This document shows, piece after piece, positions 2,781 through 61,571 of a stretch of DNA of 64,000 bases. The notes beneath the pieces are model-generated. The model made no database searches and was not told the origin of the DNA. It saw nothing but the letters and a program-made list of their open reading frames with translations. The translations under genes and the position numbers were made by a program. Location: positions 243 to 64,242 of the forward strand of contig JAPLLX010000007.1 in assembly GCA_026387335.1 (NCBI GenBank). The letters run 5' to 3'. Position 1 is the first letter of the stretch. Every line of letters starts with the position of its first letter. This DNA comes from Candidatus Omnitrophota bacterium (GTDB lineage: Bacteria; Omnitrophota; Gorgyraeia; Gygaellales; Profunditerraquicolaceae).

Positions 2781-3145
2781 TGCTTAAATCCTTCTTTATA
2801 TTTATTATTTTAGCGGCTGTTTTGTCTGTATGTCAGGCAGAAGATCCTTACGCCTGGGATTTTGGTCAGGTTAAGCCCGGGGAGGTTGTTACCCACGATT
2901 TTATATTCAAGAATGAGACAGGTAAGGAGCTGAAGATAAAAGATACAAATACATCCTGCGGCTGCACTGTTTCAGCGGTTGAAAAGAAAACTCTCCTGCC
3001 GGGGGAATCTACTAAGATCAGCGTTAAATTTAATTCCCAAGGCTATTCAGGCGCTGTGCAGCAGTTTATCTATGTCAACACGGATAATCTTGACAACCCA
3101 GTCATTAGGTTTATAATTAAAGCTAACGTAGCTAATAATAAATAA
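2780..3145 (+). CDS. DUF1573 domain secreted protein
   Basis: Signal peptide followed by a FxFxN..G...L.I....TSCGCT pattern (HDFIFKNETGKELKIKDTNTSCGCTV). GTG start overlaps the upstream stop. Confidence 0.7.
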   Translation: MLKSFFIFIILAAVLSVCQAEDPYAWDFGQVKPGEVVTHDFIFKNETGKELKIKDTNTSCGCTVSAVEKKTLLPGESTKISVKFNSQGYSGAVQQFIYVNTDNLDNPVIRFIIKANVANNK

Positions 3146-3159
3146 AACTTTAACATAAA

Positions 3160-3276
3160 AATACCAATTACCAAATCCCAATGACGAATGAATGATTTAA
3201 ATCCCAATTCCCAATTGGGACATTGGATAATTGTGATTTCATTTGACATTGGAACTTGGACATTGGGAATTAATAT
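3160..3276 (+). promoter_or_regulatory. Candidate operator/promoter region upstream of htpX: array of CCAAT and ATTGG half-sites around palindrome CCCAATTGGG
   Basis: CCAAT at 3164, 3179, 3204 and 3211. Palindrome CCCAATTGGG at 3210-3219. GACATTGG repeated at 3219, 3245 and 3259. Possible TTGGAA-N16-TAATAT promoter at 3249-3276. Confidence 0.4.
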
Positions 3277-4361: not shown

Positions 4362-5813
4362 ATGGAGTTGAACGAACTTATCCAACAAAGAAAGGCTAAA
4401 GCCGAAGCGCTTAAAGCCAAAGGGGTTGTTTTATACCCTAGCCAAAGCTCTAAATATGTGAGCATAGGCCAGGTTTTGGTTGATTTTAAGGAAGGCCAGA
4501 AATTAGCCTTTTGCGGCCGCATTACTGCCAAACGTTCGCACGGAAAAGCCGCGTTTTTAGACTTAAGGGATTCAACCGGAAAGATTCAGCTTTATATCAA
4601 AAAGGATATCGTAGGAGAAGATAACTTTTTTATCTTCGAGAATATCGATATTGCTGATTTTGTCGAGGTAACCGGCGAACTTTTTAAGACGCATACCGGT
4701 GAGCCTACGCTTAAAGTAGAAGCAATGAAGGTTCTGGCCAAAGCTTTAAGGCCGCTTCCTGAAAAATGGCATGGCCTGCGGGATGTCGATATCCGCTACC
4801 GGCAGCGTTATCTGGATTTGATTGCGAATGAAGATGTAGCTAAAGTATTCCAGCAGCGTTCAAAAATAATTAAAGCGATCCGGGATTTTCTCGACGCCAA
4901 AGGCTTTCTAGAGGTAGAGACTCCGATGATGCATTCTATTCCGGGGGGTGCCGCCGGCAGGCCGTTTAAGACCTATCACAATGAATATAGTATGGATTTA
5001 TTCTTGAGGATTGCTCCGGAGCTCTATTTAAAACGGCTTTTAGTTGGAGGCTTGGACCGGGTTTACGAGATCAACCGCTCTTTCCGCAATGAAGGCGTAT
5101 CTACCCGGCATAACCCTGAGTTTACGATGTTGGAAGTTTACCAGGCTTATTCTGATTACGCCGGGATGATGCATTTAGCTGAAAGTTTAATAGTAACTTT
5201 AGCGCAAGGCATTTGCGGTAAAACGATTATCAATTATCAGGGTAAGGAGCTGGATTTTACTCCTCCCTGGAAGCGGATTTCTTTTAAAGAATTGGTCAAG
5301 AATGAATTTGGCATTGTTCCTGAGGATGACGCAGCCCAAATGCTCAAAAAGCTTAAAGCCAAAGGTTTTGCCAAAGAGGTAAATAAGCTTTCGCGCACGC
5401 AGATCGCCAAGATCATCGAGGAGGTTCTCGAAGGGCAGATGAGTTTAAATCCTACTTTCGTTACGGATTATTTCAGCAGCATGTGCCCGTTAGCTAAGAG
5501 TAAGTTGGACGAACCCCTAGTCTCGGAGAGGTTTGAATTATATATAGCCGGAATGGAAGTCGGCAATGCCTACTCCGAGTTAAATGATCCCCTTGAGCAG
5601 AGGGCTCGCTTTGAAGATGAGATTAAAGAGCTTGTAACTGCTGAACAGAAGAATATTGACGATGATTATTGCCTGGCGCTTGAGCACGGTATGCCTCCGG
5701 CAGGCGGGTTGGGTATCGGCATAGACCGGCTGGTAATGCTTTTAACCGATCAACCTTCAATCAGGGATGTAATTTTGTTCCCTCTTTTACGTTCGGAGCA
5801 AGAAGATAAATAG
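4362..5813 (+). CDS. lysS: Lysine--tRNA ligase (class II)
   Basis: OB-fold N-terminus and class II motifs (FRNEG, GGLGIGIDRLVMLL). The length of 483 aa is typical. Confidence 0.95.
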   Translation: MELNELIQQRKAKAEALKAKGVVLYPSQSSKYVSIGQVLVDFKEGQKLAFCGRITAKRSHGKAAFLDLRDSTGKIQLYIKKDIVGEDNFFIFENIDIADFVEVTGELFKTHTGEPTLKVEAMKVLAKALRPLPEKWHGLRDVDIRYRQRYLDLIANEDVAKVFQQRSKIIKAIRDFLDAKGFLEVETPMMHSIPGGAAGRPFKTYHNEYSMDLFLRIAPELYLKRLLVGGLDRVYEINRSFRNEGVSTRHNPEFTMLEVYQAYSDYAGMMHLAESLIVTLAQGICGKTIINYQGKELDFTPPWKRISFKELVKNEFGIVPEDDAAQMLKKLKAKGFAKEVNKLSRTQIAKIIEEVLEGQMSLNPTFVTDYFSSMCPLAKSKLDEPLVSERFELYIAGMEVGNAYSELNDPLEQRARFEDEIKELVTAEQKNIDDDYCLALEHGMPPAGGLGIGIDRLVMLLTDQPSIRDVILFPLLRSEQEDK

Positions 5814-5814
5814 A

Positions 5815-7005
5815 ATGAACTCAGAGTTAATGATAAGCTGGCGGTATTTGACCACTAAGAGAAAAGAAAAATTCATCTCTCTTATCAGTATCATCTCAAT
5901 TTTGGGGATAGCTATAGGAGTGATGGCTTTAATCATAGTTATCGCGGTTATGTCGGGTTTTGATAAGGACCTGCACGATAAGATAATCGGAAATTATTCA
6001 CACATTAATTTGACCGCTTTTAAGGCGATAGGGGATAGTGAATACGCGGTTATCGCCAAAAGCGTTTCCGCTAATCCGCACGTTATCGGAATAAGCCCTT
6101 ATATACAGGGACAGGTCTTATTGAAAGATAATAACCGCTATTTTGCCGTAGGATTAAAAGGGATCAACCCCGCGGCGGAAAGCAAAGTCACTAAAGTCAG
6201 GGAATATATAAAGCAGGGCAGTATTGATAATTTAGCGGAAGGCTCGATTATCGTCGGTAAAGAGTTAGCCGGATATTTAGGTTTAGAATTAAATTCTAAC
6301 CTTTCTCTGCAGTCGCCTTTAGGCAAACAATATACCCTGAAGGTCGCCGGGATCTTCAGTTCCGGGATGTATGATTACGACCTTAACCTGGTGTTTACGA
6401 ACTTAAAAACCGCGCAGGATATTTTTGGGCTGAATAACCAGATAACCAGCGTGGCCCTGAAACTGGATAATCCGGATTTAGCGGCTCAAATCAGGCAGGA
6501 ACTGGCTTTGGCATTAGGTTATAATTATAACCTAAAGACCTGGATGGAGGCGAACCAGAATTTCTTTGCGGCCTTAAAATTAGAAAAACTGACTATGTTT
6601 ATAATCTTGACTCTAATCATATTAGTCGCTTCATTTAATATCATCAGTACTCTCATAGTCATGGTGGTCGAGAAAACAAAAGATATCGGCGTATTAAGGG
6701 CGCTGGGGATGAGCGCTTTGAGCATAAGAAAGATATTTACTTATCAGGGTTTAATAATCGGGTCATTAGGGACATTGCTGGGGTCTTTTAGCGGAATACT
6801 TATATGTTTTTTGCTTAAAAAGTACCAATTTATAAAATTACCGCAGGATATATATTATATTGACCGCTTGCCTGTGATCATCCAGATTTGGCCGGATATG
6901 GTTTTAATCGTTGTGTCGGCTTTAGTCATAATTTTAGTGGCGACCATATATCCGGCGTCCCGGGCCAGCCGTTTAAAACCGGTAGAGGCATTAAGGTACG
7001 AATAG
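5815..7005 (+). CDS. lolC: Lipoprotein-releasing system permease LolC/LolE (FtsX-like)
   Basis: MacB/FtsX-type topology with a large periplasmic loop. C-terminus is ATIYPASRASRLKPVEALRYE. Followed by lolD. Confidence 0.85.
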   Translation: MNSELMISWRYLTTKRKEKFISLISIISILGIAIGVMALIIVIAVMSGFDKDLHDKIIGNYSHINLTAFKAIGDSEYAVIAKSVSANPHVIGISPYIQGQVLLKDNNRYFAVGLKGINPAAESKVTKVREYIKQGSIDNLAEGSIIVGKELAGYLGLELNSNLSLQSPLGKQYTLKVAGIFSSGMYDYDLNLVFTNLKTAQDIFGLNNQITSVALKLDNPDLAAQIRQELALALGYNYNLKTWMEANQNFFAALKLEKLTMFIILTLIILVASFNIISTLIVMVVEKTKDIGVLRALGMSALSIRKIFTYQGLIIGSLGTLLGSFSGILICFLLKKYQFIKLPQDIYYIDRLPVIIQIWPDMVLIVVSALVIILVATIYPASRASRLKPVEALRYE

Positions 7006-7013
7006 GGATAGAT

Positions 7014-7676
7014 TTGTTAGAAGCTAAAAATATACATAAAGTTTATAATGACGGCAAGCGCGATCTTCCGGTCTTAAAAGGCGTAAACTTAAAGATTGAA
7101 GAAGGCGCCTTTATTGCCATTGTCGGCCCGTCAGGCGCAGGTAAGTCCACTTTATTGCATATATTGGGCGGCCTGGATTCTCCTACGCAGGGAGAAGTCG
7201 TTTTGGGCCAAGAAGATATTTATAAGCTTAGCGATGTAGAGCTTTCACGCATAAGAAATGAAAGAATAGGGTTTGTCTTTCAATTTTATCACCTGTTGGG
7301 CGAATTGTCGGTTTTAGAAAATGTCCTTATGCCTGCCTGGATAAGGGCAAAAGCCTCAGGTGATATAAACGCAAGGGCGCTTAAACTTATTGCTCAGGTA
7401 AATTTAACTGAAAGGCTAACGCATTTACCCGCGCAATTATCCGGCGGAGAAAAACAGAGAGTGGCTATCGCGCGCGGCTTGATGAATAAACCCAGCCTGC
7501 TTTTCTGCGATGAGCCGACAGGTAATCTTGATTCCAAGACGGGTACGGAGATCATTGCTTTAATAAAGAAAGCCAGCTTGGAAGATAAAATGACGGTGGT
7601 TTTAGTAACGCATAACGTGGAATTGACTAAAATTGCGGACAAGGTCTATAATTTAAAAGACGGAGTGTTAATTTAG
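7014..7676 (+). CDS. lolD: Lipoprotein-releasing system ATP-binding protein LolD
   Basis: Walker A GPSGAGKST, signature LSGGEKQRVAIARG, Walker B LLFCDEPTGNLD. The track ORF start at 6888 overlaps lolC. TTG at 7014, just after the lolC stop, fits the conserved N-terminus (LLEAKNIHKVY). Confidence 0.85.
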   Translation: MLEAKNIHKVYNDGKRDLPVLKGVNLKIEEGAFIAIVGPSGAGKSTLLHILGGLDSPTQGEVVLGQEDIYKLSDVELSRIRNERIGFVFQFYHLLGELSVLENVLMPAWIRAKASGDINARALKLIAQVNLTERLTHLPAQLSGGEKQRVAIARGLMNKPSLLFCDEPTGNLDSKTGTEIIALIKKASLEDKMTVVLVTHNVELTKIADKVYNLKDGVLI

Positions 7677-9058: not shown

Positions 9059-10111
9059 ATGCAGTTAAACGATTTATTAAATCACACTAGCGAATGGCTT
9101 AAGGGAAGCGGGCCAAATTCGGATATTGTGATTTCCAGCCGCATACGCCTGGCGCGTAACCTGGATAAAGAGAATTTTCCGCATTGGGCCAACAAGTCTC
9201 AAGGCGCGACTGTTTTAAATATCATTAAAGAAGGCGTAGCTAAGGTGGATTATCTAAAACGCACGACATTTTTTAATTTGGCGGATATTGACAGCGTGGA
9301 TAAACAGTTTTTGGTCGAGCGGCATCTTATGTCGCTTGAGCAGGCCCAGAAGAGCGATAGCAAGGCGTTGGTAGTGGACGATGAAGAGATAGTCTCAATT
9401 ATGATTAATGAAGAAGACCATATCCGCATGCAGGTCATGCAATCCGGGTTTAATCTTTTTGAGGCCTGGAACATTATTAACGCGATTGATGATAATTTGG
9501 CTAGGGAGTTGAATTTCGCGTTTCTCTCTAATTGGGGCTACCTGACAGCCTGCCCTACCAATGCCGGGACAGGTATGCGCGGTTCAGTCATGCTACATCT
9601 TCCGGCGCTGGTCATGACCCGTTCAATTGAAAGGGTGATGGCCGCCATTGCCAAGCTTAGTTTTACCACCCGCGGGCTTTACGGCGAAGGAACGCAGGCA
9701 ATGGGGAACTTCTTTCAAATTTCTAACCAGATATCCTTGGGGCCAAGCGAAGGCGAGATTATTGAAAGCATAAACGGCCTGATCCGCCAGATCATTGAGC
9801 AGGAGAAACAAGCCAGAGAAAGCCTGCTTGCTAAAAACAGTCCGCTTCTGGAAGACAGGATCAACCGCAGCCTCGGTATCTTAAAGAGCGCCCGGATCAT
9901 CTCAAGCCAGGAGACAATAGAATTACTTTCAATGGTCAGGTTAGGATGCGACGCAGGAATTATTAAAGATATAGACCGTCGGGTCATCAACGAGTTATTT
10001 ATTATTACTCAGCCGGCGCACTTACAGAAATTAGAGAATAAAAAGATTTCCGCGCAGGAGCGGGATTTAAAGCGGGCGGAATTAATCCGGGACAAACTAA
10101 ATATTCATTAA
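9059..10111 (+). CDS. mcsB: Protein arginine kinase McsB
   Basis: Phosphagen-kinase-type catalytic core (EEDHIRMQ, CPTNAGTGMR). Sits between mcsA and clpC. Confidence 0.9.
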   Translation: MQLNDLLNHTSEWLKGSGPNSDIVISSRIRLARNLDKENFPHWANKSQGATVLNIIKEGVAKVDYLKRTTFFNLADIDSVDKQFLVERHLMSLEQAQKSDSKALVVDDEEIVSIMINEEDHIRMQVMQSGFNLFEAWNIINAIDDNLARELNFAFLSNWGYLTACPTNAGTGMRGSVMLHLPALVMTRSIERVMAAIAKLSFTTRGLYGEGTQAMGNFFQISNQISLGPSEGEIIESINGLIRQIIEQEKQARESLLAKNSPLLEDRINRSLGILKSARIISSQETIELLSMVRLGCDAGIIKDIDRRVINELFIITQPAHLQKLENKKISAQERDLKRAELIRDKLNIH

Positions 10112-53876: not shown

Positions 53877-53954
53877 CGGGGGATGGCTCAGTTTGGCTAG
53901 AGCGCTTGCTTTGGGAGCAAGAGGTCGAGAGTTCAAATCTCTCTCCCCCGACCA
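53877..53954 (+). tRNA. tRNA-Pro (anticodon TGG), CCA encoded
   Basis: CGGGGGA / GCTC-AGTTTGGCTA-GAGC / CTTGC-TTTGGGA-GCAAG / GAGAG-TTCAAAT-CTCTC / TCCCCCG-A-CCA. Confidence 0.95.
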
Positions 53955-53979
53955 TATTTGACAATTTGAATAAAGAAAT

Positions 53980-54053
53980 GCGCCTGTAGCTCAAATGGAT
54001 AGAGCAATTGCCTTCTAAGCAATAGGTTGGCCGTTCGATTCGGCCCAGGCGCA
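53980..54053 (+). tRNA. tRNA-Arg (anticodon TCT)
   Basis: GCGCCTG / GCTC-AAATGGATA-GAGC / ATTGC-CTTCTAA-GCAAT / GGCCG-TTCGATT-CGGCC / CAGGCGC-A. Confidence 0.95.
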
Positions 54054-54066
54054 TAAAAATAAAGTT

Positions 54067-55242
54067 ATGAATAAGACTGAAAAAATCTTAGGACTAAGTA
54101 TCATAAGCCTAGCCATTATATTTGGGGCAATATATATATTCTTAAGCGTAGCCGGCAAGTCAATTATCGCTAAAACCCTTGAGTCCTTGACCCATAAGAA
54201 AACGACCGTAGGTTATTTTAACCTTAGCCCGACGCTGGATTTAGAAATCAAGAAGCTGGATATTGACGGCCTGGCTAAAATAGATTCAATTTATATTTCG
54301 CCCAACCTCTTAAGTCTTTTTAGCGGAAAAGTTATCGTTAACAGTTTTAAACTTGTTTCTCCGGAGTTTACTATTACTAAAGCTCCTCCCGCGGTAGTGA
54401 ATGAGCAAAAAACCAGCGTTGACCTTATTTCGGCGGCGCCGCCTACACCGCCTGAGTCTATCCAGCCTAAAGAATTAAAACTCCTGCCGTTTGGTTTTAA
54501 GCGTATCAGGATTGAAAACGGCATAGTTAATTACATTGATCAAAGTATAAGCGCCAACGGAATAAAAATAGTTTTAAAGGATATAAGTTGTAAAATATCC
54601 AACCTTTATTTTTTCCCGCGGCGCGGAATCACTAATTTTGAGTTAAAAGGGAAGATCCCCTGGAGAGAAGGACAGGTAAACGGCCAGTTGGATATTGAAG
54701 GATGGCTTAATTTCTTTAAGAAGGATATGCAGGCAGCTTTAAAGATCAAGGATATTGACGCTATTTATCTATATCCTTATTATTCTAATTGGGTAAATTT
54801 GGAAAAAGCGCGCATAGAAAGGGCCAAGCTCAATTTTTCAGTCGATATTAACGGTTTAAACAATAATATTATCGCGGAATGCCATTTGGCTCTGACCGAT
54901 ATGGTGCGCAAGCCGCTGGAAGCCGGAGAAGCCGAAGAAAAGGCGTCTAAGCTTACGAATAAAGTTTTAGATATGTTTAAAGCTGTTGATCAGGGCAAGG
55001 TGGAATTGAATTTTAGCGTAAAGACTAAAATGGATAATCCGCAATTTGGATTTGGTAATTTCAAAATGGCTTTTGAGGATAAGATTACCAAAGGTATGAG
55101 TTTGGGCTTTAAGCCGGAGAATGCTTTAGTTTTTCCGCTTAAGGTTATGGAAGGCGGAGTCAGAAGTTTCGCGGATTTGACCCGGGCGGCGATTGACGGG
55201 ATCTTTGCCATCGGTAACGGAGTTATCCAATCCGCTAAATAA
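54067..55242 (+). CDS. Membrane-anchored protein, DUF748/AsmA-like (tentative)
   Basis: Single N-terminal TM helix, then a long beta-rich periplasmic region with repeated (I/V)x(I/V)xNG(x)(I/V)x(Y/F)xD-type strands. Family call is tentative. Confidence 0.45.
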   Translation: MNKTEKILGLSIISLAIIFGAIYIFLSVAGKSIIAKTLESLTHKKTTVGYFNLSPTLDLEIKKLDIDGLAKIDSIYISPNLLSLFSGKVIVNSFKLVSPEFTITKAPPAVVNEQKTSVDLISAAPPTPPESIQPKELKLLPFGFKRIRIENGIVNYIDQSISANGIKIVLKDISCKISNLYFFPRRGITNFELKGKIPWREGQVNGQLDIEGWLNFFKKDMQAALKIKDIDAIYLYPYYSNWVNLEKARIERAKLNFSVDINGLNNNIIAECHLALTDMVRKPLEAGEAEEKASKLTNKVLDMFKAVDQGKVELNFSVKTKMDNPQFGFGNFKMAFEDKITKGMSLGFKPENALVFPLKVMEGGVRSFADLTRAAIDGIFAIGNGVIQSAK

Positions 55243-55304
55243 CGGGGCAATAATTTATTAGTAAGATTGCTCTATTTGTGTTAGGCTTTATTTGATAATT
55301 TAAT

Positions 55305-55379
55305 GGTGGCTATAGCTCAATTGGTTAGAGCGTTAGACTGTGGCTCTAAAGGTTGCGGGTTCGATCCCCGTTAGCCACC
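55305..55379 (+). tRNA. tRNA-His (anticodon GTG) with encoded G-1
   Basis: G-GTGGCTA / GCTC-AATTGGTTA-GAGC / TTAGA-CTGTGGC-TCTAA / GCGGG-TTCGATC-CCCGT / TAGCCAC-C. Confidence 0.95.
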
Positions 55380-55434
55380 CATAACTTATTGTGCCACAAC
55401 GATTTACAACATTATTTGAAAATTATAAGAATCC

Positions 55435-57443: not shown

Positions 57444-57689
57444 ATGCCTTGGTCACTTTACATAGTTAAATGCCAAGATACATCCCTTTACACCGGCATC
57501 ACAACCGATATCCCCCGTCGGCTCAAAGAGCATAATGCCAAGAAGGGCGCGTTTTATACCAAGAATAAGATTCCGGTTGAGCTTGTGTACCAAGAGCCAA
57601 TGCGGAATCGCTCCGAAGCCCTTAAACGCGAATCCGCCATTAAGAAGCTGACAAGGAAACAAAAGCTGCAATTGTTACCCACTAAATAA
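57444..57689 (+). CDS. Small stand-alone GIY-YIG nuclease-domain protein (UPF0213-like)
   Basis: SLYIVKC.D.SLYTGITTD..RRL.EHN motif (GIY-YIG) and a conserved downstream Glu (EALKRE). Confidence 0.85.
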   Translation: MPWSLYIVKCQDTSLYTGITTDIPRRLKEHNAKKGAFYTKNKIPVELVYQEPMRNRSEALKRESAIKKLTRKQKLQLLPTK

Positions 57690-57738: not shown

Positions 57739-58026
57739 ATGACTAATGCAATTTCGGTTGAAGTTATAGCTACAAAGATCTTAGAGATAAGAGGTAAAAA
57801 GGTTATGCTGGATAGCGATCTGGCTAAGCTTTATGGCGTAGAAACCAAAGTATTAATTCAGGCTGTAAGAAGAAATAAGGCGCGCTTCCCGCTCGACTTC
57901 ATGTATATACTCACAAGACAAGAGGTTATGAACTTGAGGTCACAAATTGTGACCTCAAGTTGGAGCGGGAGAAGAATTGAGTTATCTTCTTCGTTGTCAA
58001 GCCTACCCAAAAGTGCTATAATTTAA
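57739..58026 (+). pseudogene. ORF6N (KilA-N-related) domain gene, apparently truncated after the conserved LRSQ.VTSSW.GRR segment
   Basis: KVMLDSDLAKLYGVETKVLIQAVRRNKARFPLDFMY.LT..E..NLRSQIVTSSWSGRR matches the ORF6N pattern. The usual continuation (YLPYAFTE...) is absent in all frames. Confidence 0.6.
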
Positions 58027-58090: not shown

Positions 58091-58117
58091 ACCCAGCCAC
58101 GTAGACTGGGTTTTTTT
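58091..58117 (+). terminator. Intrinsic terminator separating the ORF6N remnant from the MazG/DUF2075/HNH module
   Basis: Stem ACCCAG/CTGGGT (58091-58096 / 58106-58111) followed by a T7 tract. Confidence 0.7.
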
Positions 58118-58142: not shown

Positions 58143-58490
58143 ATGAACGAAATGAAAGAAATTACTGAAAAAATCAAGAAATTTAGAGATGAGCGTGACT
58201 GGATGCAATTTCATGATCCTAAGAATATGGCTGTTTCAATAATACTCGAAGCTTCTGAGCTGCTTGAGCATTTTCAATGGAAAACTACCGAAGAAGTAGA
58301 AAGATATTCAAGGAAAAATCTCGCTGAGATTAAGGATGAAATTGCAGACATAGCCTTATATCTTTTTGAATTAGCCGATAATCTCGGTATCAATTTAATT
58401 GATGCGATGGATCAAAAACTTAAAAAAAATGAAATGAAATATCCGGTGGAAAAAGCTAAAGGAAAGCATACAAAATACAATAAGCTATGA
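58143..58490 (+). CDS. MazG-like all-alpha nucleoside-triphosphate pyrophosphohydrolase (DCTPP1/YpjD-like)
   Basis: F...RDW.QFH.PKN....I..EA.EL.E.FQW......E...EIADI..YL..LA pattern with EExxE/D metal motifs. AAGGAG RBS before ATG 58143. Its stop overlaps the next start (ATGA at 58487-58490). Confidence 0.8.
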   Translation: MNEMKEITEKIKKFRDERDWMQFHDPKNMAVSIILEASELLEHFQWKTTEEVERYSRKNLAEIKDEIADIALYLFELADNLGINLIDAMDQKLKKNEMKYPVEKAKGKHTKYNKL

Positions 58491-60865
58491 GACTCTATGA
58501 GGGGTCAATCAAGGAATTTTCGGAAGACGTAATACATAATCGTATCGCAGATATATTAAAAGATAACTTTCTCGCCTACTATAGAAGACCACCCTCAGAA
58601 CCAGAATATCGTTCCTGGCAGCAGTCACTAAATTTCCTAAATAACGCATTCACGTATTCAGATTTATTGAATAATAAAATAATAGTGGAGTATGAATTAC
58701 CATATTCAACTCGGCGCATCGATGTGTTGGTGTTTGGGAAGAATAATTCAAATAAGGATAGTGTTGTTTTAATGGAGTTAAAGCAATGGTCTAATGAACA
58801 TGTCTATGATTGTGAAAATGAAGGTAATGTAATAATAGATTTTCTTGGTAAGAGAGAGGTAGCTCATCCTTGTTTACAAGTTGAAGGATATCATTTTGAT
58901 TTATTAGATTTTCTGTTGATTTTTAATAGTGATGACGCAGTGCAGCTAAATTCTTGCACATATTGTCACAATTATACTAAGCAAAAAGAAAACATACTCT
59001 CGCTCCCCAAATTCCATAAATTCACCAAGGCTTTTCCTCTGTTTCTCAAAGAAGATGTCAGAGAATTGGGCCTTTATTTGCAGGAGAGATTAAAGAATAG
59101 TGACGGGCTAGAAGTCTTTAGTCGTTTTTTAAATAGCCCTGTTCGACCTTCGAAAAGATTACTAGATCACACTGGCGATATGATTCATAAGCAGCAAATA
59201 TTTACGCTTATTGATGATCAAATCGCTGCTTATAATGCGATTATTAGCAAAGCTAAGCAGTTAACTAAGACAAGTACAAAGTCTATTATTGTTGTAAAGG
59301 GTGGTCCTGGAACAGGCAAGTCAGTAATTGCATTAGAAGTTATGGGCGAGCTGATGCGTCAGGGTAAGGTTGTATATCATGCTACCGGTTCATCCGCATT
59401 TACAAATACATTGAGAAAAATTGTTGGACGTAGAGCATCAAATCTCTTCAAATTCTTTTTTAACTTTACGCAGCACAAGGAGAACGAAATCGATGTTCTG
59501 ATATGCGATGAGGCCCATAGGATTAGGTCGGATAGCAATGATTATGGGGTGCCTTCTAAATTTAAATCAAAAAACCCTCAAATAGATGATCTTATAAGGC
59601 CCGCAAAGTTATCGATATTTTTTATAGATGAATTCCAGATTGTCCGTCCAAAGGAGATTGGTAGTGCTGAATTAATAAAAAGTTCAGCCGCTAAATTTGG
59701 CGTAAATGATAAAGACATTGTAGAATTCGAACTTAGGACGCAGTTCCGTTGTTCCGGGTCAGATGCATATTTACAGTGGTTAGACAAGCTACTGGAGATT
59801 AGAGAGTCTGATATAGATATTTTTGATGCAAAAATGGAGTTTAGAATTTTTGAAACTCCAGTAGATTTAAAAAGAGCAATTGATGAGAAAAATAGACACA
59901 AGGAGAATTTAGCTAGAATTGTTGCTGGTTTCTGTTGGAAATGGAGTGAACCGAATCCAGACGGTTCATTAGTAAAAGATGTTCAAATAGGTGACTTTCA
60001 AATGCCCTGGGAGAAGAAGGATGAATTTTGGAAGTGGGCTACTGATAAGAGTGGTATGGAGCAGGTTGGGACAGTCTATACAGCTCAAGGTTTTGAATTT
60101 GACTATATAGGTGTAATCTTTGGAGACGACCTCGTTTGGCGCAAAGATAAAGGTTGGATTAGTATTCCTGAGAATTCTTTTGATAAACAGGTTTTAAGAG
60201 GGAATCAAAAGCTAACTGATCATCTTAAACATGTTTATAGAGTGTTGATGTCGCGCGCTCATAAGGGAGTTTATTTGTATTTCATGGACAAAGAAACAGA
60301 AATGTTTTTTAGGACTAAGATTGAAAGCAGGGATGGCGCTTTGATGTTTTCTGATATTGTTAAAGAGGATGAAAAGCAGTCTAAAGAGCCAGTGCCGACG
60401 ATCCCGGAAAATCTGCAGTTTAGAGATTATCTCCCTATTTTATCACTTGAAGCGGTTGCAACGTCATTCGGTAAAGAAACACAGGTTGAACAAGAACCGA
60501 TTGGTTGGATCAAGGCCGATATCCCTAGAACTTTGAATAAAGACATGTTTGTTGCGAAAGTGGTAGGTAAGTCAATGGAACCGACTATTCCTGATGGAAG
60601 CTATTGCGTATTTCGCTTTGACAAAGGAGGGACCAGGAATGGATTAGCTGTCCTTGTGGAGTGTCATTTAATTTCTGACCCTGAAACGACGAGGCAGTTT
60701 ACAATAAAGCGGTATAAAAGCGAGAAAGAATATTTTGACGATGGGACATGGAGACATAAGAAAATAATTCTTTCTCCTGATAATAATGATTTTAAAGATA
60801 TCGTTTTGGAAGATGTGCCCGCTATCGAATTTCGAGTTGTAGCGGAGTTTATGTGTGTTTTATAA
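58487..60865 (+). CDS. DUF2075-type protein (N-terminal PD-(D/E)xK-like nuclease plus P-loop SF1-like helicase/ATPase) with C-terminal S24 LexA/UmuD-type peptidase domain
   Basis: N-terminus has SE.E.RSWQQSL and RRIDVLVFG...VLMELKQW (D...ELK). Walker A GGPGTGKS (aa 272-279), Walker B/DEAH ICDEAHR, helicase C-terminal motif TVYTAQGFEFDY. C-terminal aa ~645-792 have VVGKSMEPTIPDGSY (Ser codon 60572-60574) and FTIKRY (general-base Lys). Confidence 0.8.
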   Translation: MRLYEGSIKEFSEDVIHNRIADILKDNFLAYYRRPPSEPEYRSWQQSLNFLNNAFTYSDLLNNKIIVEYELPYSTRRIDVLVFGKNNSNKDSVVLMELKQWSNEHVYDCENEGNVIIDFLGKREVAHPCLQVEGYHFDLLDFLLIFNSDDAVQLNSCTYCHNYTKQKENILSLPKFHKFTKAFPLFLKEDVRELGLYLQERLKNSDGLEVFSRFLNSPVRPSKRLLDHTGDMIHKQQIFTLIDDQIAAYNAIISKAKQLTKTSTKSIIVVKGGPGTGKSVIALEVMGELMRQGKVVYHATGSSAFTNTLRKIVGRRASNLFKFFFNFTQHKENEIDVLICDEAHRIRSDSNDYGVPSKFKSKNPQIDDLIRPAKLSIFFIDEFQIVRPKEIGSAELIKSSAAKFGVNDKDIVEFELRTQFRCSGSDAYLQWLDKLLEIRESDIDIFDAKMEFRIFETPVDLKRAIDEKNRHKENLARIVAGFCWKWSEPNPDGSLVKDVQIGDFQMPWEKKDEFWKWATDKSGMEQVGTVYTAQGFEFDYIGVIFGDDLVWRKDKGWISIPENSFDKQVLRGNQKLTDHLKHVYRVLMSRAHKGVYLYFMDKETEMFFRTKIESRDGALMFSDIVKEDEKQSKEPVPTIPENLQFRDYLPILSLEAVATSFGKETQVEQEPIGWIKADIPRTLNKDMFVAKVVGKSMEPTIPDGSYCVFRFDKGGTRNGLAVLVECHLISDPETTRQFTIKRYKSEKEYFDDGTWRHKKIILSPDNNDFKDIVLEDVPAIEFRVVAEFMCVL

Positions 60866-60875
60866 TTTCTAAATA

Positions 60876-61571
60876 ATGTTTAAAGCCGGTGATGTAATTT
60901 CATACATTGAAATGTGCCAAGAAGAAGGTATAAGTCTTCAAAGAGGAATGAACTTTCGACTTAAAGGAAGACACAGTGTAATATTGATGAGTCTCAGACG
61001 CAATGCTCCATATGCTGATAAGGTTGAAGATAATGGCAAGACATTAATATACGAAGGTCATGATATCCCTCGGTTTAATAGAGCTCAAGATTCAAAGCTG
61101 GTTTCTCAACAAATGCAGAATCCCGGAGGTAGTTTAACTCAGAATGGGTTTTTTTATAAAGCAGCGCATGATTACAAAAATAAGAAGTCTGATGCAGAGC
61201 TAGTCAAGGTATATGAAAAAATTCATTCAGGAATATGGGCTTATAACGGTTTATTTAAACTAGTTGATTCGTGGCAAGAAGAATCGAATAAAAGAAAAGT
61301 ATTTAAATTCAGACTTGAAATAGATAAAATAAATTCTAAGGGCAAACAGCCAGAAAATTTTGATTTGGATCGTAACAGATTAATACCTGCATCTGTAAAG
61401 CTAGCGGTTTGGAAGAGGGATAAGGGGAAGTGTACTAAATGCGGCAGCCCTGATAATTTACATTTCGACCACATAATTCCTTATTCAAAAGGCGGGTCTT
61501 CTTTAGTTGCAGAAAACATTCAGTTGTTATGCGCAAGACATAATATTGAAAAGCGAGATAGGATTGAATAA
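60876..61571 (+). CDS. SRA (YDG)-like domain fused to HNH nuclease: type IV (modification-dependent) restriction endonuclease candidate
   Basis: N-terminus GMNFRLKGRHSVILMSLRRNAPYADKVEDNGKTLIYEGHD and VKVYEKI..GIWAYNGLFKLVDSWQEE..KRKVFKFRLE parallel the SRA blocks (GIHG..GAYSLVL.GGY.DD.D.G....YTGSGG; VRV.R.....YDGIYKVV.YW.E.G..G..V.RY.L.R). C-terminus CTKCG..DNLHFDHIIPYSKGG......NIQLLCARHN is an HNH motif. Confidence 0.75.
   Translation: MFKAGDVISYIEMCQEEGISLQRGMNFRLKGRHSVILMSLRRNAPYADKVEDNGKTLIYEGHDIPRFNRAQDSKLVSQQMQNPGGSLTQNGFFYKAAHDYKNKKSDAELVKVYEKIHSGIWAYNGLFKLVDSWQEESNKRKVFKFRLEIDKINSKGKQPENFDLDRNRLIPASVKLAVWKRDKGKCTKCGSPDNLHFDHIIPYSKGGSSLVAENIQLLCARHNIEKRDRIE

Follow-up and report, generated by a model that had tools for sequence, protein, structure and literature searches.

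LexA, UmuD and lambda CI are autoproteases of the S24 family (MEROPS S24, PF00717), in which a Ser-Lys dyad lies within the motifs G-x-S-M and T-[VI]-K-R and the cleaved bond follows an Ala or Cys residue (position P1) in a strand of the form LPxx..xA-AG, cut between its last two residues and placed approximately 35-38 residues upstream. The scissile bond is separated from the serine by 35 residues in LexA and 36 in UmuD, position G85 of LexA is reportedly highly intolerant to substitution, and the ClpX degron of LexA is said to be VAA; in S24-like repressors that do not cleave, 186 CI among them, the dyad has been lost. It has been demonstrated that LexA-like proteins possess C-degrons beside the autocleavage site which are read by ClpXP after cleavage (PMC5742171), that F111 of LexA lines the RecA-F203 pocket (bioRxiv 10.1101/2023.10.30.564768), and that the LexA-like protein IrvR cleaves itself independently of RecA (PMC7101444). 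Among defence systems, Nhi of S. epidermidis (SERP2475) and Nhi-like proteins unite a PD-(D/E)xK nuclease with a DUF2075 SF1B helicase and occur in a defence-island context; Nhi is active as a dimer, contains a metalloenzyme-type domain, and some of its homologues are toxic when expressed (bioRxiv 10.1101/776245). HsdR is subject to proteolytic restriction alleviation after DNA damage or hypomethylation (PMC4231737, PMC11109961; bioRxiv 10.1101/2024.10.21.619520), and the known cases, ClpXP acting on EcoKI HsdR and the Lon/AsrA-dependent loss of HsdR in P. aeruginosa, use an external protease on the stalled or translocating enzyme.

The window analysed here, a stretch of 64,000 nucleotides from a Candidatus Omnitrophota bacterium (contig JAPLLX010000007.1), encodes a predicted nuclease-helicase that ends in an S24 domain and is preceded by a MazG-like gene. 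The features of this locus are the following:

57994..58022, forward strand: promoter-like site upstream of the MazG-like gene (TTGTCA-17-TATAAT, 11/12 matches, extended -10 TG)
58143..58490, forward strand: gene for a MazG-like/DCTPP1-like all-alpha NTP pyrophosphatase of 115 aa (Pfam MazG-like, E=4.9e-20)
58487..60865, forward strand: nuclease - SF1B helicase - linker - S24 autoprotease gene, an uninterrupted ORF of 792 aa plus stop
58487..59191, forward strand: NERD-like PD-(D/E)xK nuclease domain (about aa 1-235; E68, D79, E97, K99), assigned from conservation and predicted topology
59279..60289, forward strand: DUF2075/Schlafen group-3 SF1B helicase core, aa 265-601 (Pfam PF09848, E=1.1e-83)
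59300..59323 and 59507..59518, forward strand: Walker A and DEAH motifs, respectively, both within the helicase core
60326..60427, forward strand: flexible linker, aa 614-647 (AF2 pLDDT below 50 for residues 615-632)
60431..60472, forward strand: cleavage-site strand L649-G662 (LPILSLEAVATSFG), predicted scissile bond A658-T659 in codons 60458-60463
60503..60862, forward strand: S24 catalytic beta-domain, aa 673-792, with Ser696 (60572-60574) and Lys741 (60707-60709)

A preliminary description of this protein had listed a series of motifs, all of which were located as described (RIDVL at residue 77, ELKQW at 97, GGPGTGKS at 272, DEAH at 341 and TVYTAQGFEFDY at 529), and the codon positions of Ser696 and Lys741 were checked and agree. 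That description had allowed for two separate genes having been joined by an assembly error or frameshift, a reading to which a few assemblies that place helicase and S24 in separate frames lend some colour (Halomonas PA16-9, locus L044 and the HsdR of L084-L086). Such an artefact is effectively refuted, because more than 100 protein clusters at 55-91% identity, from independent samples and several phyla, share the full-length DUF2075-S24 architecture in a single ORF; furthermore, the window shows no break in the ORF, and a separate Logan contig carries it in identical form. Locus L044, considered as a variant truncated at the cleavage site, was rejected: it copies the L023 gene, which is intact, but is plainly riddled with indels.

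The earlier domain calls, namely a PD-(D/E)xK-like N-terminus, a DUF2075 helicase and an S24 fold with a Ser/Lys dyad, were supported. In the N-terminal domain, E68, D79, E97, K99, Q100 and W101 are invariant among 75 sequences, and the AF2 model predicts an alpha-beta-beta-beta-alpha topology with D79 and E97-x-K99 on consecutive strands; the Pfam NERD match is below threshold (E=0.016, 16.2 bits versus a cutoff of 22.1), the PADLOC NERD+UvrD match is weak, and the domain is a putative nuclease. The helicase core aligns with PF09848 (SLFN-g3_helicase/DUF2075) over profile positions 1-354 of 354 and thus belongs to this family, GGPGTGKS and DEAH (the Walker A and B residues) being invariant among the 75 aligned sequences. 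An SF1B fold is also indicated by the top Foldseek matches of the full-length model (human SLFN11, SLFN14, RecD2 and Dda), and an NCBIfam search with the window protein gave no informative match. Although the Schlafen group-3 helicases (SLFN11, SLFN14, SLFN5) share its Pfam helicase family and provide the best structural matches of the full-length model, they are only about 13% identical, have the Schlafen tRNase core in place of PD-(D/E)xK and are without S24; SLFN11 responds to replication stress and ssDNA. Relatives lacking S24 interleave with those bearing it, with up to 89% core identity, which indicates that the core enzyme can do without its S24 part.

The combination of PD-(D/E)xK nuclease and DUF2075 SF1B helicase in a defence-island setting is shared with Nhi, and the window family is described here as a candidate defence nuclease-helicase. 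The PADLOC matches to Nhi (E=1.1e-12) and AbiO (2.4e-13) are partial and weak, covering residues 155-470 only, and a match to PDC-S41 (3.3e-17) covers residues 524-598. Unlike Nhi, with its metalloenzyme-type domain, the window protein has an S24 C-terminal domain and an obligatory-looking MazG-like partner, none being mentioned for Nhi (bioRxiv 10.1101/776245). Nhi is a stand-alone single gene, whereas of 80 related GTDB loci 56 have a MazG-like gene directly next to that for DUF2075, as do L081-L083 and every close context examined. The suggestion in the preliminary description that this protein resembles single-protein immunity factors is consequently not supported, since the conserved operon with a DCTPP1-like MazG pyrophosphatase does not correspond to a single-protein system.

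In the window, the stop codon of the MazG-like gene overlaps the start of the DUF2075 gene (ATGA, checked in the sequence), and an alternative TTG start for the former is present at 58116. The promoter-like site is probably the start of the operon, as a match to the consensus only, the total of such sites in the region not being above shuffled expectation. The MazG-like protein matches solved structures of pyrophosphatases (4qgp, 5e-25; DCTPP1/RS21-C6, 1.4e-18), and the metal-binding motif ExxE...ExxD is kept in 57 sequences (that of the window and 56 partners); unlike DCTPP1 and RS21-C6, the window's gene is the dedicated operon partner of a nuclease-helicase. An SRA-HNH gene was rejected as a member of the system, being common only to L002 and the window's own duplicate contig.

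The S24 assignment of the C-terminal region relies on several profile comparisons. Residues 679-783 match Pfam Peptidase_S24 (PF00717) at 28.5 bits, above the curated gathering cutoff of 23.3, relatives score up to E=4.6e-16 against the same profile, and PHROGs phrog_4 (CI-type repressor) covers residues 649-776, including the cleavage-site strand. When the last 158 residues were compared with the PDB as a single sequence, nothing meaningful was returned and a family profile was needed, with which only LexA and UmuD chains were matched. In hhalign against the C-terminal domain of E. coli LexA (probability 94.8%, E=5.5e-8), GKS696ME pairs with GMS119MK and TIK741RY with TVK156RL, so that the dyad proposed earlier is confirmed as equivalent to S119 and K156 of LexA and the S24 fold, whose absence in an HMM analysis had been considered, is upheld; the catalytic domain has the LexA-type beta-barrel fold. 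Taken together, these matches far exceed what chance would produce. Ser696, Lys741, Gly694 and Met697 are invariant in 115/115 full-length sequences, and across 376 modules the dyad serine is kept in 375 and the lysine in 376. Invariant F688 aligns with LexA F111, the other pocket positions being hydrophobic. In contrast to LexA, UmuD and CI, the subfamily contains two inserted segments, namely PETTR and an extended beta-hairpin (744-757), and a conserved signature of its own (W674, Y743, S745, H757), and its cargo is a nuclease-helicase of about 650 residues (restriction enzymes in relatives) rather than a small HTH domain or the short UmuD arm. The N-terminal HTH or winged helix that is the hallmark of LexA/CI-type repressors is absent from the window protein, its N-terminal 650 residues being nuclease and helicase, and a transcriptional role is not expected. 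The earlier idea of an SOS-type sensing fold wired to a nuclease-helicase is supported by the domain evidence.

It had also been stated that no AG or CG cleavage site is visible, which is literally true of the window protein, but the homologous site is clear at A658-T659, 38 residues before Ser696, in a UmuD/LexA-like strand (LPxxSLxAxA followed by G, T or S, then.FG) to which the phrog_4 and Pfam alignments of relatives extend. Among 115 full-length relatives this bond is A-G in 56, C-G in 13, A-S in 13 and A-T in 33, that is, P1 is Ala in 102 and Cys in 13 whereas P1' is Gly in 69, Thr in 33 and Ser in 13, with P650 and F661 invariant. Across the 376 modules the principal pairs are AG (216), AT (81), CG (47) and AS (24), so about 70% of relatives have Ala-Gly or Cys-Gly here; at P1, every aligned module but one (Ser) carries Ala or Cys, and P1' is only Gly, Thr or Ser. 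The near-invariant dyad and this restricted choice at P1 and P1' argue for selection on both catalysis and the scissile bond. In the window protein, Ala658 and the distance to the serine are canonical and Thr at P1' is non-canonical, its own clade toggling between Thr and Ser only. The A-T variant recurs on HsdR, TnsA-like and DUF2075 hosts, which points to a maintained subtype and not to decay. The scissile region forms a short helix (654-659) in the AF2 model, and the preceding linker is poorly conserved with frequent indels among the 115 homologues. Residues co-varying with P1' are inseparable from shared ancestry and no inference was drawn from them.

A search with the module yielded 2,420 clusters (50% identity) at a threshold of E<=1e-3, of which 493 remained at E<=1e-30, and in 363 of 376 proteins it stops no more than 15 residues short of the C-terminus. 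The N-terminal partners among 91 representatives included DUF2075 (14), ResIII (14), Type_ISP_C (12), Eco57I (5), N6_Mtase (4) and RE_AlwI (3), with one each of T1RH-like_C, Mrr_cat, RE_LlaJI, MmeI and DUF3427, HTH domains occurring in only 2/91; HsdR contexts were found in L084-L086. The module is mobile, as copies carried by HsdR share 61-70% identity with that of the window and DUF2075-hosted ones of other clades only 41-50%; in P0117 the core is 53% and the S24 domain 73% identical. By sequence comparison, this distinct S24 subfamily is a portable tail at the C-terminus of DNA-cutting defence enzymes of many kinds, comprising Type ISP, MmeI/Eco57I-type, Type I HsdR, AlwI, LlaJI, Mrr, DUF3427 and DEAD-MZB nucleases. 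S24 was present in 0/12 assessable archaeal loci versus 16/65 bacterial loci, a marginal difference (p=0.06) that fits a dependence on bacterial RecA/Clp machinery; one archaeal S24-less relative has a core 80% identical to that of an S24-bearing protein, and one S24 protein, P0138, comes from a MAG labelled archaeon.

The best explanation of these data is that this gene specifies the effector in a defence-island module of two genes, in which a MazG pyrophosphatase accompanies a NERD-like nuclease/DUF2075 SF1B helicase, and that the effector in this lineage acquired a complete LexA/UmuD-type S24 cassette with cleavage strand, Ser696 and Lys741. A DNA-damage signal, most probably RecA-ssDNA filaments present while the cell's own chromosome is cut or repaired, would stabilise the cleavable conformation; Ser696 would cut the A658-T659 bond, the S24 domain of about 134 residues, likely a dimeriser, would be shed, and the remaining 658-residue enzyme would carry a new Ala-rich C-terminus (...LEAVA-COOH) resembling the latent ClpXP C-degron of cleaved LexA. 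The net effect would be that the nuclease is down-tuned or removed when the cell's own DNA is endangered, which would amount to a restriction-alleviation or autoimmunity brake inside the enzyme itself. Self-cleavage of the cassette is probable and RecA* as its trigger comes close to an even chance, while inactivation as the overall outcome is proposed tentatively, as is a LexA-style damping switch as the best overall explanation. The likeness to Type I restriction alleviation lies in the post-translational proteolytic shut-off of a translocating nuclease and in the occurrence of the module on HsdR-type proteins; it is a functional analogy only, the known cases having no self-cleaving domain whereas here the proposed sensor and first cut would reside within the enzyme. 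Several observations weigh against a damping switch: Thr replaces the canonical Gly at P1' of the window protein; the scissile region is modelled as a short helix; the 658-aa product would resemble natural S24-less and presumably active relatives, so activation fits equally unless loss of the dimer or exposure of a degron matters; and a degron function of Ala-rich C-termini (AVA/AAA type) in these mostly uncultured phyla is an assumption. The merely marginal contrast between archaea and bacteria, the origin of P0138 and the RecA-independent autocleavage of IrvR count against this explanation as well.

A host-agnostic mechanism is argued for by the attachment of the same module to at least 10 unrelated nuclease architectures via a disordered linker, and such a cassette appears to fit a LexA-style switch best and a specific activating latch less well. 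The latter had been raised in the preliminary description; on this reading, S24 would keep the nuclease-helicase inactive until RecA*, assembled on replication or recombination intermediates of a phage or on DNA that has been damaged, triggers self-cleavage and frees the active 658-aa enzyme in an infection-triggered, possibly abortive response. Activation by S24 cleavage has a precedent in the processing of UmuD into UmuD', the product would match natural S24-less members (608-641 aa) in length and sequence, and latency would be useful because some Nhi homologues are toxic on expression (bioRxiv 10.1101/776245). However, a specific autoinhibitory docking surface would be required on all of those unrelated architectures across a linker of roughly 30-45 disordered residues, and many hosts are classical restriction enzymes that must act on incoming DNA before RecA* could form, so that this latch is disfavoured and considered rather unlikely.

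A self-cleaving switch could also respond to something other than RecA*, the cassette cleaving spontaneously or on cues such as pH or stress, helicase-bound ssDNA, a phage-encoded protein or, in connection with the MazG partner, altered nucleotide pools, and the S24 domain being likewise shed. IrvR is a precedent for RecA-independent autocleavage (PMC7101444), the PETTR insertion, the 744-757 hairpin and W674/Y743/S745/H757 could form a different interaction surface, and there is the S24 member from an archaeal MAG; the invariant F111 equivalent, the hydrophobic pocket positions and the lack of S24 in all 12 assessable archaeal relatives, despite the core of 80% identity, nevertheless make such a trigger improbable. 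The remaining alternative, also raised in the preliminary description, is that S24 does not cleave and serves as a dimerisation domain or as a tether to RecA filaments or nearby ssDNA, the A-T bond being a dead pseudo-substrate in this clade. Thr in place of the canonical Gly at P1', the dimerisation of the S24 C-terminal domains of LexA, CI and UmuD, and the dimeric nature of Nhi would agree with it; on the other hand, Ser696 and Lys741 are invariant in all 81 A-T and 24 A-S modules, and the dyad conservation, the P1 and P1' constraints and the recurrence of A-T on different hosts described above render a non-cleaving role quite improbable.

How nuclease defences spare the host after DNA damage, hypomethylation or acquisition of a new system is understood for few model enzymes (ClpXP on EcoKI, Lon in P. 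aeruginosa). Descriptions of S24 fusions to DUF2075 or restriction enzymes were not found in the literature searched, whose coverage was incomplete, so that this is absence of evidence only; a 2025 review of R-M biology (270k characters) contains neither "S24" nor "LexA". The data suggest that the S24 tail on defence nucleases may be an undescribed built-in switch tying DNA-cutting enzymes to a DNA-damage signal. With greater reserve, the distinct S24 subfamily might be viewed as a portable, host-agnostic 'self-destruct/uncoupling' cassette that wires defence nucleases to RecA*, possibly extending to Type I, ISP, IIG/L, IIS and IV restriction enzymes and DUF2075 nuclease-helicases. If so, it would provide built-in, protease-autonomous restriction alleviation and autoimmunity control as a simple, transferable solution to self-harm, carry the S24 autoprotease principle beyond transcription factors and UmuD into the regulation of enzymes, broaden the known S24 scissile-bond specificity through the A-T and A-S variants, define a two-gene MazG plus nuclease-helicase defence candidate, and give engineers a natural degron/uncoupling cassette that depends on a signal. 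Should activation of the nuclease prove to be the role of the module, this would be a new RecA*-sensing immunity trigger, either outcome being informative.

Regarding the provenance of the module, a phage origin was rejected, as there was no GenBank phage match and IMG/VR relatives reach only about 30% identity, and plasmid searches revealed a single cultured example, Halomonas sp. PA16-9, in two frames. Apparently stand-alone S24 proteins, for example P0147 and P0237, were also discarded, being C-terminal pieces of split or frameshifted HsdR genes.

The open reading frame at 58487..60865 (+) is unbroken on translation and encodes a protein of 792 aa, in which the motifs quoted in the preliminary description all lie where it had placed them (RIDVL at residue 77, ELKQW at 97, GGPGTGKS at 272, DEAH at 341 and TVYTAQGFEFDY at 529), as do the catalytic residues Ser696 (codon 60572-60574) and Lys741 (codon 60707-60709). 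The helicase assignment is confirmed by the Pfam family SLFN-g3_helicase (formerly DUF2075), whose entire profile is covered by residues 265-601 (E=1.1e-83), and the S24 fold proposed for the C-terminus by Pfam Peptidase_S24, which matches residues 679-783 with 28.5 bits against a curated cutoff of 23.3. In addition, the CI-type repressor family phrog_4 (PHROGs) matches residues 649-776, and LexA and UmuD chains are the sole PDB matches of a profile of the C-terminal domain (A2, built from 37 domains). The proposed Ser/Lys dyad holds when the profile is aligned with the C-terminal domain of E. coli LexA (probability 94.8%, E=5.5e-8), GKS696ME being paired with GMS119MK and TIK741RY with TVK156RL. 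The predicted full-length model (pLDDT 82) resembles SLFN11, SLFN14, RecD2 and Dda, with residues 615-632 modelled as a disordered linker. The N-terminal ~235 residues give a sub-threshold NERD match, and E68, D79, E97-x-K99 and Q100-W101 are invariant on consecutive predicted strands; we infer that this region is a PD-(D/E)xK-type nuclease.

It had also been considered that an assembly error or frameshift might have joined two genes. Against this, an identical copy of the protein is encoded by an independent contig, and PF09848 and PF00717 share a single ORF of ~790-810 aa in more than 100 protein clusters (55-91% identity) from Omnitrophota, Elusimicrobiota, Nitrospira, Syntrophaceae, Verrucomicrobia, Bacillota, Bacteroidaceae and others, leaving an artefactual fusion with next to no probability.

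The statement that no canonical AG/CG cleavage site is visible stands for the window protein itself, which has A|T (P1|P1'), but does not extend to its family, in which the homologous site is clear on alignment. The strand flagged earlier, LSLEAVATSFG, aligns with the UmuD/LexA-like motif L-P-x-x-S-L-x-A-[AV]-[AC]|[GTS]-x-F-G, which puts the predicted scissile bond at A658|T659, 38 residues N-terminal of Ser696. Among 115 full-length homologues Gly694, Ser696, Met697 and Lys741 are invariant, P1 is either Ala (102) or Cys (13), to our knowledge the only P1 residues of LexA/UmuD-type proteins, and P1' is Gly in 69, Thr in 33 and Ser in 13; the Omnitrophota clade to which the window protein belongs is of the A|T type. 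Across a larger collection of 376 modules, the module being the S24 cassette with its cleavage strand, the commonest pairs are AG (216), AT (81), CG (47) and AS (24), and the dyad Ser and Lys are present in 375/376 and 376/376, respectively. Substitution of LexA Gly85 is reportedly not tolerated. Judged from these alignments, the site is restricted to small residues and selection on the dyad persists where the pair is A|T or A|S, which argues against a dead S24 domain. The scissile region of the window protein is modelled by AF2 as a short helix.

A profile of the module, searched against 1.84 billion representative proteins, matched 2,420 clusters with E<=1e-3, of which 493 reached E<=1e-30, in host proteins of ~150 to 1,878 aa, and the module ends at most 15 residues from the C-terminus in 363 of the 376 proteins. 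The Pfam domains N-terminal to it in 91 representatives are most commonly DUF2075 (14), ResIII (14) and Type_ISP_C (12), followed by Eco57I (5), N6_Mtase, DEAD and MrfA-Zn (4 each), RE_AlwI and SWI2/SNF2 (3 each), RE_endonuc, Methylase_S and GIY-YIG (2 each) and, once each, T1RH-like_C, Mrr_cat, RE_LlaJI, MmeI_Mtase and DUF3427; HTH domains occur in only two of the 91. Hosts verified one by one comprise an MmeI/Eco57I-type protein (P0259), Type ISP enzymes (P0287, P0307, P0279), ResIII/SNF2 proteins (P0293, P0335) and a DEAD-MZB-REase (P0288), all with A|G, C|G or A|S sites, and in three further loci (L084-L086) the module closes Type I hsdR genes adjoining hsdM and hsdS. The AVA|T subtype is found on HsdR-C, TnsA-like and DUF2075 hosts. 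HsdR-hosted modules are 61-70% identical to that of the window, as against 41-50% for DUF2075-hosted modules of other clades, and a relative sharing the AVA|T type (P0117) is 53% identical in the core (nuclease and helicase) and 73% in S24; together these identities argue that the module is transferred between host proteins and swapped between lineages. No copy of it turned up in GenBank phages, and its relatives in IMG/VR are all distant.

Several irregular forms were observed. The S24-bearing hsdR is called as at least two overlapping ORFs on three independent contigs (L084 2890-5771, L085 152-3033, L086 4421-7492), the break lying inside or before the T1RH-like_C domain, which could reflect indels from assembly or else a split or frameshift that recurs. 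The module is not terminal in 7/376 proteins (P0259, P0307, P0279, P0311, P0316, P0332, P0334) but has a tail of 50-200 residues behind it, so cleavage there would free a different C-terminal piece; in the first three it lies at 1163-1311 of 1490, 814-963 of 1166 and 306-454 of 651, and their tails gave no Pfam match. Two S24 stretches occur in P0241 (287 aa), which looks like a tandem S24-S24, and in P0071 and P0366. Module-bearing sequences derive almost wholly from uncultured bacteria; a single example from a cultured organism was found, Halomonas sp. PA16-9 (NZ_CP040452.1, at 4920-7390, essentially unannotated), where DUF2075 (686 aa) is encoded in one frame and S24 (159 aa, with an IAAG site and a GESMNRR motif) in another, and where the upstream MazG gene is missing.

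Within the DUF2075 enzymes the S24 extension is present in just 16 of the best 80 GTDB loci, and proteins with and without it, the latter 608-641 aa long, are intermixed, their cores sharing up to 89% identity. It was seen in 0/12 assessable archaeal loci versus 16/65 bacterial loci (p=0.06), one S24-less archaeal core sharing 80% identity with an S24-bearing protein from bacteria, and the module appears confined to bacteria. The sole archaeal-labelled occurrence observed is in a MAG (L087 2220-7843), where a 280-aa protein with an unassigned N-terminal half and an AVA|T module follows an HNH_2 gene and two N6_N4 methyltransferase genes in an R-M-like context.

The S24 cassette that a flexible linker joins to these unrelated DNA-cutting enzymes is complete and held under purifying selection, and the core enzyme can do without it. 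Because it serves more than 10 unrelated hosts, the cassette should work by a host-independent principle. One LexA-like principle would be that the cut severs the functional domain from S24, the part that dimerises. Another is suggested by LexA itself, in which, according to PMC5742171 (with reference to Neher 2003 and Niu 2010), cleavage bares a latent C-degron beside the scissile bond that is recognised by ClpXP; here the cut would leave ...LEAVA-COOH on the whole nuclease, the corresponding ends in relatives being AAA, AAC or VAA. LexA F111 lines the RecA-F203 pocket (bioRxiv 10.1101/2023.10.30.564768). The trigger would most simply be RecA*, since the equivalent of F111 in the alignment to LexA, F688, is invariant, the remaining pocket positions are hydrophobic and the module is seemingly bacterial only. 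A nuclease that turns on the chromosome of its own cell generates precisely this signal. Damage to self-DNA would, via RecA*, lead to autocleavage, with dimerisation lost and/or the nuclease degraded.

A precedent for such restraint is HsdR, which undergoes proteolytic restriction alleviation by external proteases after DNA damage or hypomethylation (PMC4231737, PMC11109961, bioRxiv 10.1101/2024.10.21.619520). On the strength of this precedent, the host-independent LexA principles and RecA* as a self-attack signal, a built-in brake on the nuclease is tentatively favoured, as possible if short of probable; this hypothesis is of wide relevance and simple to test. An activating latch, in which S24 cleavage switches the enzyme on, has UmuD as a precedent and would yield a product similar to the natural S24-less enzymes, but would require a specific inhibitory interface on each host and seems rather unlikely. 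Self-cleavage might also answer to a trigger other than RecA, as in the LexA-like protein IrvR (PMC7101444), which we consider distinctly unlikely, while a module that serves as a non-cleaving dimeriser or tether is very unlikely given that dyad and site are both conserved.

By fold, HMM and dyad the C-terminal domain belongs to family S24, although the canonical P1' Gly, present in most of its subfamily, is absent from the window protein, which also lacks the HTH cargo by which LexA/CI repressors are defined. The core is a genuine DUF2075/SLFN-g3 helicase whose architecture resembles that of Nhi, the anti-phage nuclease-helicase of S. epidermidis. However, the Nhi, AbiO and PDC-S41 models each match in part only and the system differs from Nhi in having a partner gene, for which reasons it is not classed as Nhi, while probably working like Nhi-type nuclease-helicases. 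Two known kinds are combined here, the S24 switch and the DUF2075 defence enzyme. No published description of S24 fused to DUF2075 proteins or restriction enzymes was found in a literature search of incomplete coverage, and databases give the fusion proteins automatic annotation only (e.g. the relative P0095).

The gene stands among the following features:

57444-57689, + strand, stand-alone GIY-YIG domain protein (81 aa), on the upstream border of the islet
57739-58026, + strand, small ORF6N-domain protein (PADLOC candidate PDC-S05, E=3e-28), shortly upstream of the gene pair
57994-58022, + strand, candidate strong promoter-like site, from sequence match
58143-58490, + strand, MazG-like gene (115 aa), upstream of the DUF2075-S24 gene and overlapping it by ATGA
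60876-61571, + strand, SRA(SAD)-HNH gene (231 aa), Type IV modification-dependent-restriction-like, 10 bp 3' of the S24 gene

The resemblance to single-protein immunity factors does not extend to the setting of the gene, as a MazG-like gene is present in 56/80 related GTDB-genome loci of bacteria and archaea, and this recurrence indicates a two-gene module. The end of the MazG-like gene falls nearly always exactly at the DUF2075 start, with or without S24, its ExxE...ExxD metal-binding motif is conserved, and the protein it encodes has DCTPP1/RS21-C6 and an archaeal pyrophosphatase among its relatives (1e-18 to 5e-25). The pair may be an undescribed two-gene defence candidate: none of the PADLOC models matches the MazG-like gene, and no description of MazG paired with DUF2075 was found in the literature searched, the coverage of which was incomplete. 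The SRA-HNH gene also lies downstream in one other locus (L002, 66% identity) and is absent from every other related locus. G+C is 0.33-0.38 across 58.0-61.5 kb (MazG/DUF2075-S24/SRA-HNH) as opposed to 0.41-0.46 in the flanks, a dip that suggests a small, horizontally acquired defence islet near a tRNA cluster; tRNA-Pro/Arg/His genes lie upstream of it at 53877-55380. The MazG-DUF2075 pair is also found in L081-L083, amid toxin-antitoxin and ORF6N genes, and ORF6N genes likewise lie near the pair in several unrelated loci (L083 at 2935-3264 and 9308-9661, L018 and L050).
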